Of a stretch of DNA of 64,000 bases, positions 1 through 5,983 are shown piece after piece. The notes below the pieces were generated by a model. The model saw only the letters and a list, made by a program, of their open reading frames with translations, did no database searches and was not told where the DNA came from. A program made the translations under genes and the position numbers. Within the stretch, counting starts at the first letter, position 1. Each line of letters opens with the position of its first letter. The DNA comes from Escherichia coli (GTDB taxonomy: Bacteria; Pseudomonadota; Gammaproteobacteria; Enterobacterales; Enterobacteriaceae), in assembly GCF_044324875.1 (NCBI RefSeq), contig NZ_CP172185.1. One strand, 5' to 3'.

Positions 1-1168
1 AGACCACTTTATCAAGCGTGGTGTAACGGAATACCTGTGCCCACATTGTTCTGCGTTAGCTCTGTTCTCCCTACAGTTAAATGCGCCGTCAGGTGGTAAA
101 GGCTACCGCACCGGTTTACGCGGCGGTGGGCCGATGACCACTCTGATTGAATTACAGGAATATCAGGGCAATCAACAAACGCCCTTGTGGCGCAAACTGT
201 GGCTCAATGTGATGCCGCAGGACGAAGCCGACTTACCGCTACCCAAAAAATTTGACGATCTGGTTTTCCCCTGGCTTGGCCCGACGCGTACCAGCGAACT
301 GGCCGGTGCGGTGGTAACCGATGATCAGGTTAATAAACTCCAGGCGTACTGGGGAATGCCGCGGCGTATTCGTATTGATTTTAATACCACGACAGTCGGC
401 AACTGCGATATTTGCGGCGAGCAGAACGACGCGCTCCTGAGCCTGATGACGACCAAAAATTACGGCGCGAATTATGCCATGTGGCAGCATCCCTTAACGC
501 CTTACCGTGTACCCCTTAAAGAGGGCGGCGAGTTTTACTCGGTCAAACCACAACCAGGCGGTTTAATCTGGCGCGACTGGTTAGGCCTTATCGAAACGGG
601 TAAATCAGAAAACAATACGGAACTTCCCGCGCTGGTGGTGAAACTCTTTAATGCCAGCAGTCTCAAGCAGGCAAAAGTGGGCCTGTGGGGATTTGGTTAT
701 GATTTTGACAACATGAAAGCGCGCTGTTGGTACGAACACCATTTTCCGCTGCTGCTCGATAAAAAAGAAGGCCAGATACCGAAGCTGCGGCTGGCTGCGC
801 AAACGGCTTCACGGATTCTGAGTCTGTTACGGAGTGCATTGAAAGAAGCGTGGTTCTCCGATCCAAAAGGTGCACGGGGTGATTTCAGTTTTGTGGATAT
901 CGACTTCTGGAACAAAACTCAGCATCGCTTCCTGAGGTTAGTGCGCCACATTGAAGAAGGTCAGGATGCGGATGAATTACTCAGCAAATGGCAAAAGGAA
1001 ATTTGGTTATTCGCGCGTCAGGATTTTGACGAGCGTGTCTTCACCAATCCATATGAGCCCGTTGATTTGAAACGCGTCATGACCGCGCGCAAGAAATATT
1101 TTACAACATCGGCGGAGAAGCAAAATGCTAAAGCCGCCAGGGAGAAAAAGCAGGAGGCTGCTGAATGA
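1..1168 (+). CDS. casA: Cascade large subunit Cse1/CasA (type I-E), 5' end lies upstream of the window
   Basis: Reading frame of ORF 134..1168 stays open back to position 2; first gene of a tightly overlapping cse1-cse2-cas7-cas5-cas6e-cas1-cas2 series ending at a type I-E CRISPR array; identity from operon position and size rather than sequence recall. Confidence 0.75.
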   Translation, partial: DHFIKRGVTEYLCPHCSALALFSLQLNAPSGGKGYRTGLRGGGPMTTLIELQEYQGNQQTPLWRKLWLNVMPQDEADLPLPKKFDDLVFPWLGPTRTSELAGAVVTDDQVNKLQAYWGMPRRIRIDFNTTTVGNCDICGEQNDALLSLMTTKNYGANYAMWQHPLTPYRVPLKEGGEFYSVKPQPGGLIWRDWLGLIETGKSENNTELPALVVKLFNASSLKQAKVGLWGFGYDFDNMKARCWYEHHFPLLLDKKEGQIPKLRLAAQTASRILSLLRSALKEAWFSDPKGARGDFSFVDIDFWNKTQHRFLRLVRHIEEGQDADELLSKWQKEIWLFARQDFDERVFTNPYEPVDLKRVMTARKKYFTTSAEKQNAKAAREKKQEAAE

Positions 1169-1701
1169 GTATTGTAAAAGAGGAGCACAAAGCCACGCTG
1201 CGTAAATGGCACGAAGAGTTGCAGGAAAAACGCGGCAATCGTGCCAGTCTGCGGCGTAGCACAACGGTTAATGATGTTTGTCTGTCAGAAGGGTTTCGTT
1301 CTCTGCTGATGCAGACCCACACTTTGTGGAAAATTGAAGCACAAGAGTGGCGTTTTACCGCACTGGCGCTGGTCGCCGCAGTTAGCGCCAATGTTAAAGC
1401 TATTGATGAACGGCAGCCTTTTGCCGCGCAGCTGGCGGCGGTAATGTCGGAGGGGCGTTTTACTCGCCTGTCGGCAGTAAAAACGCCTGATGATTTACTG
1501 CGTCAGTTACGTCGCGCGGTCAAATTATTAAATGGTTCCGTCAATCTTATCTCTTTGGCAGAAGATATTTTCCGCTGGTGCCAGGAGAGCGACGACCTGC
1601 TCAATCATCACCGCCGCCAGCAGCGGCCAACAGAATTTATCCGTATCCGCTGGGCGCTGGAATATTACCAGGCTGGCGACGCCGATAACGAACAAAATTA
1701 A
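1165..1701 (+). CDS. casB: Cascade small subunit Cse2/CasB (type I-E)
   Basis: 178 aa ORF; ATG overlaps the casA stop (ATGA); size and position as expected for Cse2; sequence differs from the K-12 CasB I recall. Confidence 0.7.
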   Translation: MSIVKEEHKATLRKWHEELQEKRGNRASLRRSTTVNDVCLSEGFRSLLMQTHTLWKIEAQEWRFTALALVAAVSANVKAIDERQPFAAQLAAVMSEGRFTRLSAVKTPDDLLRQLRRAVKLLNGSVNLISLAEDIFRWCQESDDLLNHHRRQQRPTEFIRIRWALEYYQAGDADNEQN

Positions 1702-1715
1702 TAAAGGACTATCTC

Positions 1716-2771
1716 ATGACGACATTTATTCAGCTTCATTTGTTAACCGCTTACCCTGCTGCCAACCTTAACCGTGATGACACCGGTGCGCCAAAAACTG
1801 TGGTACTGGGTGGAGCAACGCGTCTGCGCGTTTCCTCACAAAGTCTGAAACGTGCGTGGCGCACTTCTGCACTTTTTGAACAGGCACTGGCGGGCCATAT
1901 TGGTATTCGCAGTGGGCGTATTGCGCGTGAGGCGGCAACTATCCTGATTGAGAAAGGCATCGAAGAGAAAAAAGCCATCGAATGGGCGGCAAAAATTGCG
2001 GATTATCTTGGGAAAGCTAAAAACGACAAAAAACCAAAAGATCCGCTCACTAACGCCGAAACTGAACAGCTAGTCCATATCAGCCCGGCAGAATTTGACG
2101 CCGTAAAAGCGCTGGCCCATCAACTGGCCGAAGAAAAGCGCGCGCCAAAAGAGGAAGATCTCGCTTTGTTACGTAAAGATCGCATGGCGGTAGATATCGC
2201 TATGTTTGGTCGTATGCTGGCGAATAAACCCGAATTTAATGTTGAAGCCGCCTGCCAGGTCGCGCATGCATTTGGTGTCAGTGAAACGATTGTCGAAGAT
2301 GATTTTTTCACCGCCGTTGATGATTTGCGCCAGGCTTCTGAAGATGCCGGTGCCGGGCATCTTGGTGAAACCGGATTCGGTTCTGCGCTGTTCTACACCT
2401 ATATCTGCATCGATAAAGATCTGCTGGTCGAAAACCTCGGCGGTGACGAAGCGTTAGCTAATCAGACCTTGCGCGCCTTTACGGAAGCCGCACTTAAAGT
2501 CTCCCCAACCGGCAAACAGAACAGCTTTGCCAGCCGTGCCTACGCCTCCTGGGCGCTGGCAGAAAAAGGCACTGAACAACCACGCTCTCTGGCGGCGGCT
2601 TTCTATGAACCCATTAATGGCACCCGGCAGTTAGATGTGGCGGTGCAGCGTATTACAACGCTTCGCGAAAATATGAATACGGTCTATGAACAGAAGACCG
2701 AATGCGCAAGCTTTGACGTGATGAACAAACAGGGAAGCATGAAGGACGTGCTGGACTTTATCTGCGCGTAA
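1716..2771 (+). CDS. casC: Cascade backbone subunit Cas7e/CasC
   Basis: 351 aa ORF immediately after cse2, correct size and position for Cas7e. Confidence 0.75.
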   Translation: MTTFIQLHLLTAYPAANLNRDDTGAPKTVVLGGATRLRVSSQSLKRAWRTSALFEQALAGHIGIRSGRIAREAATILIEKGIEEKKAIEWAAKIADYLGKAKNDKKPKDPLTNAETEQLVHISPAEFDAVKALAHQLAEEKRAPKEEDLALLRKDRMAVDIAMFGRMLANKPEFNVEAACQVAHAFGVSETIVEDDFFTAVDDLRQASEDAGAGHLGETGFGSALFYTYICIDKDLLVENLGGDEALANQTLRAFTEAALKVSPTGKQNSFASRAYASWALAEKGTEQPRSLAAAFYEPINGTRQLDVAVQRITTLRENMNTVYEQKTECASFDVMNKQGSMKDVLDFICA

Positions 2772-5080: not shown

Positions 5081-5370
5081 GTATGGTCGTCGTTGTTACA
5101 GAAAATGTCCCTCCGCGCTTACGTGGACGGCTCGCGATCTGGCTCCTGGAAGTGCGTGCCGGTGTTTATGTCGGAGATACGTCCAAACGTATTCGGGAGA
5201 TGATCTGGCAGCAAATCTCTCAACTGGCAGGTTGCGGAAATGTGGTAATGGCCTGGGCGACCAATACCGAGTCGGGTTTTGAATTTCAGACCTGGGGTGA
5301 AAATAGACGTATTCCGGTGGATTTGGATGGGGTGCGTTTGGTTTCTTTTCTTCCTGTTGATAATCAATAA
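5077..5370 (+). CDS. cas2: Cas2 (type I-E)
   Basis: 97 aa [34 protein letters not shown]... resembles K-12 YgbF/Cas2; ATG overlaps the cas1 stop. Confidence 0.9.
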
Positions 5371-5466
5371 GTTAGACGTTCTTTAAAAATAAGGAAATGT
5401 TTGAATTTAGTTGGTAGATTGTTGATGTGGAATAAATTTGTTTAAAAACAGATATGTATGCTTAGT
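5371..5466 (+). promoter_or_regulatory. CRISPR leader (AT-rich, between cas2 stop and first repeat)
   Basis: About 96 bp AT-rich non-coding stretch directly upstream of repeat 1; leader-array promoter expected here by analogy with E. coli I-E arrays. Confidence 0.6.
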
Positions 5467-5983
5467 GTGTTCCCCGCGCCAGCGGGGATAAACCGCTTTT
5501 GTTTCTGATTTCTACGCCTGTGGGTAAGTGTTCCCCGCGCCAGCGGGGATAAACCGGAGCAACTACTCGCAGCACAACAGGCAGGTAGGTGTTCCCCGCG
5601 CCAGCGGGGATAAACCGTTTTCTCTAATTACAGTGATTTTTCAAAATCCGTGTTCCCCGCGCCAGCGGGGATAAACCGCGATTCAAAAATAAAATGACGA
5701 CGGAGGAGGCGTGTTCCCCGCGCCAGCGGGGATAAACCGCCGTCGAAGTGACCATGCTCTTTCATTGTGATGTGTTCCCCGCGCCAGCGGGGATAAACCG
5801 AACACAGCGTAAAACCGTCGCAGCCATGCCGAGAGTTCCCCGCGCCAGTGGGGATAAACCGATTGGTCGGTTATGCATCCTGCTAACCAGATTGTGTTCC
5901 CCGCACCAGCGGGGATAAACCGTAATATTAGACTAATGTTTTTTTGTTGAGTTCGTGTTCCCCCGCCACTGCGGTAGAACTCC
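5467..5983 (+). CRISPR. Type I-E CRISPR array: 9 repeats of 29 bp (last degenerate), 8 spacers of 32 bp, 61 bp period
   Basis: Repeat GTGTTCCCCGCGCCAGCGGGGATAAACCG begins at 5467, 5528, 5589, 5650, 5711, 5772, 5833, 5894; repeat 7 reads GAGTTCCCCGCGCCAGTGGGGATAAACCG and repeat 8 GTGTTCCCCGCACCAGCGGGGATAAACCG; degenerate terminal repeat at 5955..5983. Confidence 0.97.

Follow-up and report, generated by a model that had tools for sequence, protein, structure and literature searches.

A majority-type cas-E1 CRISPR-Cas locus of Escherichia coli, and apparent old module exchanges on the K-12 side of the comparison

In this work we analysed a stretch of 64,000 nucleotides of Escherichia coli DNA, hereafter the window. 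Judging from the sequence, its positions 1–5983 very probably carry the ordinary, majority E. coli variant of type I-E CRISPR-Cas, intact-looking and at the usual cysH–iap site. The order is casA (with its 5′ end outside the window), casB, cas7e, cas5e, cas6e, cas1e, cas2e, leader and array. An earlier note on this DNA had read the same order from the sequence (cse1-cse2-cas7e-cas5e-cas6e-cas1-cas2-leader-array), and both the coordinates and the NCBIfam assignments bear it out, as all seven products belong to type I-E equivalog families and each scores above the curated cut-off. The features are as follows.

1–1168, plus strand: casA (cse1/cas8e), 3′ 388 codons, start upstream of the window; TIGR02547, E=2e-128
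1165–1701, plus strand: casB (cse2/cas11e), 178 aa; TIGR02548, E=2e-29
1716–2771, plus strand: cas7e (casC), 351 aa; TIGR01869, E=3e-134
2782–3528, plus strand: cas5e (casD), 248 aa; TIGR01868, E=4e-46
3510–4160, plus strand: cas6e (casE), crRNA endoribonuclease by family, 216 aa; TIGR01907, E=7e-86
4157–5080, plus strand: cas1e, integrase by family, 307 aa; TIGR03638, E=3e-114
5077–5370, plus strand: cas2e, 97 aa; TIGR01873, E=8e-39
5371–5466, plus strand: A+T-rich CRISPR leader, 96 nt from the cas2 stop to the first repeat
5467–5983, plus strand: cas-adjacent CRISPR array, 8 repeats of 29 nt and 8 spacers of 32 nt
5862–5893, plus strand: spacer 7, matching SSU5-family phage-plasmids
6005–7042, minus strand: iap, 3′ of the array and followed by cysD, an arrangement as in K-12

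The signature set of type I-E (cse1/cas8e, cse2/cas11e, cas7e, cas5e and cas6e) is thus present in the window, and the adaptation genes cas1e and cas2e sit 3′ of cas6e, matching the type I-E layout. The casA gene is cut by the window edge only: its frame, open from base 2 on, reaches its stop at 1168 and covers positions 131–503 of the TIGR02547 profile, and its product is 100% identical to the CasA of strain YZMc17-1 (520 aa). The window begins inside casA, so that cas3 and the cas promoter would fall upstream of base 1; in the near-identical (99–100%) operon of YZMc17-1, cas3 lies directly 5′ of casA. Cas1e and Cas2e reach 381 bits (cut-off 215.6) and 131.6 bits (cut-off 33.15) against their respective families, and Cas1, when aligned with its K-12 counterpart, keeps E141, H208 and D221 unchanged. 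A scan of the whole window at the Rfam gathering thresholds returned tRNAs only.

The array, which is the one named CRISPR2.1 in E. coli (PMC3903273), contains eight good repeats with a 61-nt period (5467–5922) and ends in a degenerate terminal repeat (5955–5983). The repeat, GTGTTCCCCGCGCCAGCGGGGATAAACCG, shares 28 of 29 positions with the K-12 repeat (GAGTT...), the mismatch being at position 2, which qualifies its description in the earlier note as a K-12-type 29-mer. A hairpin with a 7-bp stem is predicted for its RNA (-15.2 kcal/mol, z=-3.2), and the combination of 29-nt hairpin repeats, spacers of about 32 nt and an adjoining A+T-rich leader is that of a type I-E array. When the whole array was searched against phages and plasmids, the result was swamped by repeat-to-repeat matches in other CRISPR arrays and in mislabelled records. 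A search with the spacers only, joined by runs of N, gave targets for no spacer except spacer 7. Of its 32 positions, 31 match in Klebsiella phage ST13-OXA48phi12.3, and equally in records of plasmids about 110 kb long, which number in the hundreds. The protospacer, with its one mismatch at position 11, is preceded by ATG in two phage-plasmid records, a single data point that fits the type I-E AWG motif. The whole array was found in none of the complete E. coli genomes, and the window copy therefore has its own set of spacers. A simple scan of the leader and array (5300–6100) for the sigma-70 consensus found nothing above shuffled sequences, which is uninformative on transcription, and the sole terminator-like site in this region is a repeat hairpin.

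By analogy with the type I-E family, the array would be transcribed from the leader and Cas6e would cleave the repeats, in each case at the hairpin base. A CasA1-CasB2-Cas7(6)-Cas5-Cas6e complex, Cascade, would be built on the crRNA, read AWG-flanked protospacers and recruit the Cas3 protein encoded upstream of the window, and integration of further 32-nt spacers by Cas1–Cas2 would take place on the leader side of the array.

This operon is the published cas-E1 variant, and K-12 carries the minority E2 form, which is already known. The two variants, and the replacement of the whole cassette, leader included, have been described (PMC3903273, PMC2886076); cas-E1 is the name given by Almendros et al. 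2014 (PMC3903273), and the same variant is called 'var. B-8552' elsewhere (PMC12736100). Among 5426 complete genomes, no fewer than 2434 match at least 80% of the window variant, compared with 1121 for the K-12-type Cascade genes. E1 Cas proteins are those that cluster with O157:H7, E. albertii and Salmonella, apart from K-12 and E. fergusonii; the window is 96% identical in nucleotides to O157:H7, forms a clade with E. albertii, Salmonella and Klebsiella, and is separated from the K-12 Cascade. The G+C content of its Cascade genes (51–55%, compared with 44–48% in K-12) is in the higher range expected of E1, for which the published mean is 53.5% vs 45.6% for E2 (PMC3903273); GC3 is likewise 0.47–0.57 in the window and 0.36–0.43 in K-12. 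The published table for var. B-8552 (PMC12736100) lists the same lengths in bp for casB (537), cas7 (1056), cas5 (747), cas6 (651), cas1 (924) and cas2 (294), and matching identities to K-12 for Cas7 (31%), Cas6 (27–29%), Cas1 (84–85%) and Cas2 (85–86%). The cysH-cas-array-iap locus, the gene order and the grouping with E. albertii and Salmonella are also those of cas-E1, from which the window copy differs in nothing essential: it has its own spacers, and a 586-bp cas6e/cas1 tract from a different E1 allele. The chromosomal type I-E systems of Salmonella enterica, Klebsiella and Citrobacter are colinear with the window along the entire operon, have the same repeat and diverge from the window at the species level only (Cas1 93–96%, Cas7 84–88% identical), with the same relationships for both modules; nucleotide identity to Salmonella is 75.5%, the flank being at 78%.

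K-12, the experimental model, shares with the window the subtype, gene order, chromosomal site, 32-nt spacers, Cas1 catalytic residues and Cas6e histidine, and the AWG-type motif at the one protospacer found. In contrast, Cas3 and Cascade are only 21–35% identical between the two and belong to separate deep lineages (200/200 bootstraps). The earlier note had singled out Cse2 and Cas6e as divergent from K-12; they are (23% and 27%), as are the three other Cascade subunits, CasA (21%), Cas7 (31%) and Cas5 (35%). It had also called Cas1 and Cas2 K-12-like, which holds for the proteins (85% amino acid identity each to MG1655) but not for the DNA, as both genes are only 74% identical and their synonymous differences are saturated (pS 0.80 for cas1 and 0.73 for cas2). 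Protein identity to K-12 does step up at the cas6e–cas1 boundary, and nucleotide similarity begins at window position 4178, 21 nt into cas1. The note had suggested a mosaic operon, in which the interference genes were exchanged and the adaptation module and array kept. If so, cas1 and cas2 should be as little diverged as the flanking genes, whereas iap and cysD are 96.6–98.7% identical to K-12 in DNA (dS 0.06–0.15, pS 0.05–0.13). The leader is also only 68% identical to that of K-12 (74 of 109 aligned positions), with conserved blocks. This difference from the flanks indicates that the diverged cassette includes the adaptation module as well as the leader. The note itself had taken uniform identity above 95% to a single operon as the sign that there is no mosaic, and all seven proteins match those of a single extant E. 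coli operon, L002, at 99.0–100% identity (CasB 100%, Cas7 99.7%, Cas5 99.6%). The contrast with K-12 thus marks no junction within the window operon, the E1 and E2 cassettes differing over their whole length, and the locus resembles a patchwork only because K-12, the carrier of the rarer published form, was the yardstick. We considered the 85% Cas1 identity as a sign of recent shared ancestry and rejected it, since identities of 75–87% are also found in Pectobacterium, Marinomonas, Methylophaga, Bordetella and others; dating the E1/E2 split of cas1 and cas2 relative to Cascade by dS is impossible because all the cas genes are saturated.

Comparison across species indicates that the idea of a mosaic may survive in another form. 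We used 80 loci, the best Cas1 matches of 202 loci found, so that the Cas1 axis ends at about 75%; trees were built by neighbour-joining on Kimura distances with 200 bootstraps for the 75 loci from other species. Between the two deep Cascade lineages in these 75 loci, Cascade identity is flat (0.26–0.33) across Cas1+2 identities of 0.70–0.95, with cross-lineage pairs of up to 0.95 in Cas1+2 and 0.31 in Cascade. At a Cas1+2 identity of 0.80–0.85, Cascade identities are 0.43–0.90 (median 0.50) within a lineage vs 0.26–0.32 between lineages, with no overlap. The 13 loci with an E2-lineage Cascade come out as a single group in 200/200 bootstraps of the Cascade tree and in 0/200 of the Cas1+2 tree. 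Same-genus pairs that carry different Cascade lineages are Cas1+2 sisters in Oceanospirillum (200/200), Marinomonas (200/200) and Citrobacter (195/200), and in 179/200 the K-12 Cas1+2 falls with those of UBA5654, C. portucalensis and Raoultella, whose Cascade is in each case of the other lineage. In every cross-lineage pair the DNA similarity starts at the cas1 start. The window clade (E. albertii, Salmonella, Klebsiella, Citrobacter) is recovered by both modules (198–200/200). Across Gammaproteobacteria the Cas1+Cas2 and Cascade trees are therefore in strong conflict, and an exchange of modules at the cas6e–cas1 boundary looks real; it appears to be old and recurrent, and to be visible on the K-12 (E2) side. 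The part of the mosaic idea that survives would accordingly concern the E2 lineage of K-12 as the mosaic partner, in events that are probably ancient; synonymous sites being saturated, the age and direction of these deep exchanges cannot be fixed. The same repeat family adjoins both Cascade lineages and the catalytic Cas6e histidine, aligned with K-12 H20, is kept in all 75 loci, which readily explains the compatibility of Cascade and crRNA processing with the repeat that the earlier note had predicted.

The likeness of Cas1 and Cas2 across E1 and E2 probably has two causes, very strong purifying selection on this Cas1–Cas2 clade, whose identity is 75–99% throughout Gamma- and some Betaproteobacteria even with synonymous sites saturated, and frequent re-assortment of the cas3–cas6e block relative to the cas1–cas2–leader–repeat block. 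Deep in the history of type I-E, re-assortment would have occurred many times and exactly at the cas6e–cas1 boundary, the K-12 cassette being one recombinant; in the window cassette both modules have the same relationships. These observations lead us to propose, tentatively and at somewhat less than even odds, a model in which the cas1–cas2–leader–array of gammaproteobacterial type I-E systems is a host-anchored platform, kept at its place in the chromosome, at which Cas3–Cascade cassettes of deeply different lineages (about 30% identity) are repeatedly swapped in at the cas6e–cas1 boundary as the one fixed breakpoint, the K-12 E2 form being one product and the window E1 the un-recombined form of Enterobacteriaceae. 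The broader statement, that Cas1–Cas2 and the repeats may be almost frozen as two deep lineages of interference cassettes re-assort in several genera, has a neighbour-joining basis and cannot yet be claimed. Semi-independent evolution of the adaptation and effector modules of CRISPR-Cas systems has been described (Koonin and Makarova 2019, PMC6452270), and the conflict between the Cas1+Cas2 and Cascade trees of 75 type I-E loci is of this kind; unlike in that general scheme, re-assortment here would take place within one subtype, the boundary being fixed at the start of cas1 and the chromosomal site often unchanged. In a limited search of the literature for an earlier account of re-assortment within type I-E, only the general principle was found.

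Other readings account less well for the tree conflict. The Cas1–Cas2 tree could track host taxonomy by host-driven convergence (e.g. on host IHF or repair factors), or because type I-E loci residing together underwent gene conversion, and not by retention. In keeping with this, the Cas1+2 sisters are mostly congeners irrespective of their Cascade lineage, and repeats track the host too. However, cas1–cas2 DNA identity in congener pairs is only 71–78%, and there has therefore been no recent conversion; in the Oceanospirillum pair the cas1–cas2 identity (78%) equals that of the shared left flank (77.8%), whose proteins are 86–90% identical and lie next to cas3 in each of the two species, consistent with retention in place. 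Convergence would also need to yield 195–200/200 bootstraps in several genera, and we regard this reading as improbable. Differences in rate alone would imply that cassettes split once as whole units, with exchange at no depth, and that Cas1–Cas2 evolves far more slowly than Cascade. Cas1 is indeed under extreme constraint (95% protein identity between K-12 and UBA5654, with 73.5% in DNA), its dN in the comparison of the window with K-12 is 0.13, that of the Cascade genes being 0.72–1.0, and Touchon and Rocha found the trees of all the Cas proteins to be broadly similar in Escherichia and Salmonella (PMC2886076). Yet a slow Cas1–Cas2 does not explain the non-overlapping Cascade identities, the most similar cross-lineage pairs or the bootstrap contrast of the E2-lineage group described above, and this explanation is very unlikely to be sufficient. 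A recent in-place swap within E. coli, with the resident cas1–cas2, leader and array kept and a junction at the cas6e–cas1 boundary, is suggested by the jump in K-12 identity from 21–35% to 85% exactly there and by the nearly identical repeat, but it is scarcely credible given the divergence of cas1, cas2 and the leader compared with the flanks, the uniform match of the seven proteins to a single operon, the same clade found for the window by both modules, and the published conclusion of a replacement of the entire cassette together with its leader (PMC3903273, PMC2886076).

If cassettes are swapped onto a host-anchored platform as we propose, stored spacers would stay usable through the swaps, because the same repeat is read by both Cascade lineages, and the swaps could be an escape route from Cascade-targeting anti-CRISPRs. 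This side result is of moderate interest, as it bears on the survival of immune memory through effector replacement. For the window itself, the outcome is the correct annotation of a common E. coli CRISPR-Cas variant, which matters little. That K-12 is an atypical reference has already been stressed in the literature. Departures from it are not to be taken for peculiarities of the strain under study, and biochemistry established with K-12 (Cascade contacts, sensitivity to anti-CRISPRs) may not carry over to most E. coli.

Within the E1 variant itself, one short stretch of the operon stands out.

4088–4673, plus strand: short tract of recombination within the E1 variant, covering the 3′ end of cas6e and the 5′ half of cas1

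No complete E. coli genome was found with at least 99% identity over 4060–4700. The tract contains 34 of the 44 differences from YZMc17-1, only 3 being in positions 1–4087, and is 98–99.7% identical to strain 2014C-3011, the casA of that strain having an identity of only about 79%.

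The locus at 1–5983 of the window comprises seven plus-strand genes with a leader and a CRISPR array downstream, and all seven products score well above the curated cut-offs of the type I-E equivalog profiles (NCBIfam). With iap and cysD downstream, the chromosomal site is the standard E. coli cysH–iap CRISPR locus.

Features of the locus, with amino acid identity of the products to the K-12 MG1655 proteins
ends at 1168, plus strand, casA, 21% (frame open from base 2, so that the start lies upstream of the window)
1165–1701, plus strand, casB, 23%
1716–2771, plus strand, cas7e, 31%
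2782–3528, plus strand, cas5e, 35%
3510–4160, plus strand, cas6e, 27%
4157–5080, plus strand, cas1e, 85%
5077–5370, plus strand, cas2e, 85%
5371–5466, leader, 96 nt, A+T-rich, upstream of the first repeat
5955–5983, degenerate terminal repeat
6005–7042, minus strand, iap, 99%, downstream of the array and followed by cysD, 99.7%

The array has eight repeats of 29 nt at 61-nt spacing and eight spacers of 32 nt; a 7-bp hairpin is predicted in the repeat RNA, as expected. Gene set, profile scores, leader, array and flanks thus confirm the locus and gene order read by the earlier note. This is a standard, already known cas-E1 type I-E CRISPR-Cas locus. Almendros et al. 2014 (PMC3903273) defined two cas-E variants, E1, the major one, clustering with E. 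albertii and Salmonella, and E2, found in K-12, most group A strains and E. fergusonii. A 2025 survey (PMC12736100) listed the same lengths and, gene by gene, the same identities (Cas7 31%, Cas6 29%, Cas1 84% and 73% nt, Cas2 86% and 75% nt).

From the K-12-like Cas1, Cas2 and repeat beside very different Cse2 and Cas6e, the earlier note proposed a mosaic operon, with the interference module exchanged and the adaptation module and array kept. The similarity step that it saw is real and lies exactly at the cas6e–cas1 boundary: nucleotide similarity to K-12 begins at 4178, 21 nt inside cas1, and, at about 71–74%, extends past cas2 and the leader into the array, where the repeat differs at one position (GTG... 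here, GAG... in K-12). Nevertheless, the operon is not mosaic, because its seven proteins are all 99.0–100% identical to those of a single operon, that of E. coli YZMc17-1, an outcome that the earlier note had itself set as refutation, because cas1, cas2 and the leader are as diverged as described below, and because this variant is the common form. At synonymous sites cas1 and cas2 differ from K-12 by a proportion of 0.80 and 0.73, saturated as in the Cascade genes, whereas synonymous divergence in the flank is 0.15 (iap) and 0.06 (cysD), and only 74 of 109 leader positions are identical. Cas1 and cas2 were therefore not retained while their neighbours changed; the adaptation genes and leader belong to the diverged cassette. 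G+C content of the Cascade genes, 51–55% here versus 44–48% in K-12, agrees with the published E1/E2 contrast (PMC3903273). Among 5426 complete E. coli genomes, window 1–6000 is covered to 80% or more in at least 2434, O157:H7 included at 96% nucleotide identity, and the K-12-type casA–cas6e is found in 1121; the window's variant is the common one in E. coli.

The resemblance of Cas1 and Cas2 to those of K-12 was examined with relatives of Cas1 in one genome per species (80 loci), every Cas protein being scored against each of the two variants. In Enterobacterales, Marinomonas, Oceanospirillum, Methylophaga, Shewanella, Bordetella, Parasutterella and others, Cas1 and Cas2 are 75–99% identical to both variants, so that 85% identity is the background for this clade. 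Constraint on Cas1 is extreme: the K-12 protein is 95% identical to that of the Enterobacteriaceae MAG UBA5654, with only 73.5% DNA identity. Cas3 and Cascade split into deep lineages, C1 (60 of 75 loci, window included), C2 (13, K-12 included) and two loci standing alone. In four loci (L055, L062, L066 and L071) Cas1 is 76–78% identical to the window's and Cas3/Cascade about 25–35% identical to the E1 and E2 sets (up to about 40% against E2 in L066), which suggests that more interference lineages exist next to this adaptation module; in L055 cas6e lies upstream of cas7.

That modules evolve semi-independently is well established (PMC6452270), and the earlier note's idea has some truth for how the K-12 cassette arose and for type I-E generally, but not for a junction in the window; the mosaic interpretation is thus only partly supported. 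In neighbour-joining (distance) trees with 200 bootstraps, built on loci picked as best Cas1 matches, the 13 C2 loci cluster together in every Cascade replicate (200/200) and never in those of Cas1+Cas2 (0/200). Four pairs are Cas1+Cas2 sisters with different Cascade lineages: the Oceanospirillum pair, the Marinomonas pair and Marisediminitalea with an Alteromonas MAG (200/200 each), and Citrobacter amalonaticus with Citrobacter sp. 18056 (195/200). UBA5654, C. portucalensis and Raoultella (all C1) are the partners of K-12 in the Cas1+Cas2 tree (179/200), and C. amalonaticus is its partner in the Cascade tree (190/200). Cross-lineage Cascade identity is flat (0.26–0.33) whether Cas1+Cas2 identity is 0.70 or 0.95, and DNA similarity sets in at the cas1 start in every cross-lineage pair. 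In both species of the Oceanospirillum pair cas3 borders on the left flank, which is 77.8% identical in DNA and 86–90% in protein, and cas1–cas2 are 78% identical in DNA (Cas1 96% in protein), with a cas3–cas6e block of 30–47% between them; this looks like an interference cassette swapped in place, the adaptation block being retained. These comparisons support an old module exchange on the K-12 side, not at a junction in the window; saturation prevents dating, and host-driven convergence of Cas1–Cas2 is an alternative, though an unlikely one. For the window, module nesting is identical in both trees (Parasutterella, Atlantibacter, C. sedlakii, Salmonella/Klebsiella/Citrobacter, then E. albertii, Escherichia sp. 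and the window; 179–200/200), and the operon is colinear with that of Salmonella over its full length.

The earlier note's point that crRNA processing and Cascade assembly in a mosaic must still suit the repeat fits these data. The repeat GTGTTCCCCGCGCCAGCGGGGATAAACCG adjoins C1 cassettes at 18 loci and also the C2 cassettes of C. amalonaticus, Erwinia endophytica and a Pantoea; at other loci the repeat varies with host, not Cascade lineage, always keeping the pattern GTTCCCC-stem-GGGGAT(A/G)AACCG. Since repeats are common to both lineages and all 75 loci keep the His that aligns with H20 of K-12 Cas6e, one repeat family is read by both Cas6e/Cascade lineages, and this common repeat is what would let re-assorted modules cooperate.

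Within the operon, the sole detectable junction is a tract at 4088–4673, with 34 differences from YZMc17-1, nearly all synonymous, versus three in 1–4087. Over this tract strain 2014C-3011 is 98–99.7% identical, against only about 79% in casA, and none of the complete genomes reaches 99% identity over 4060–4700. It is a short product of ordinary homologous recombination between E1 alleles, of the kind that Almendros et al. described (PMC3903273). The E1 operon of 2014C-3011 is itself decaying: its casA (78–82% DNA identity to the window's) is preceded by an IS3 element, cas5e is frameshifted and a stop codon interrupts cas1e; casB is not annotated as a gene of its own, and the unusually long annotated cas7e (2440–3711) may be a casB–cas7e fusion or a misannotation. 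Two contigs labelled as Bacillota and Collinsella MAGs carry cas genes 94–100% identical to the E. coli E1 operon and are probably mis-binned E. coli.

The whole array (5467–5983) is in none of 5426 complete E. coli genomes, the best full-length matches (about 79%) being due to the repeats. Spacer 7 (5862–5893) matches SSU5-family phage-plasmids, at 31/32 in Klebsiella phage ST13-OXA48phi12.3 and some 500 plasmid records of Klebsiella, E. coli and Salmonella, and at 29/32 in Salmonella phage SSU5; the target is within an ABC-type ATPase gene, with an ATG motif before the protospacer on the expected side, a likely sign of array use. The remaining seven spacers have no match at E ≤ 0.1.

Elsewhere in the window, the rpoS–mutS variable region (18332–21700) has hydroxyarylic acid decarboxylase genes and is without the 6-kb ygbN–ygbI cluster of YZMc17-1. 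It contains a divergent pphB (20048–20716, minus strand, 87% nt) and, adjoining mutS, an additional ORF of 287 aa (20729–21592, minus strand), with what look by eye like Sel1/TPR-like repeats. The HigB/HigA pair (about 970 bp, between hycI and ascB in YZMc17-1) is absent at about 39246–39397, and tRNAs Ser(GCT), Arg(ACG) and Arg(ACG) are clustered at the far window end (63110–63557).
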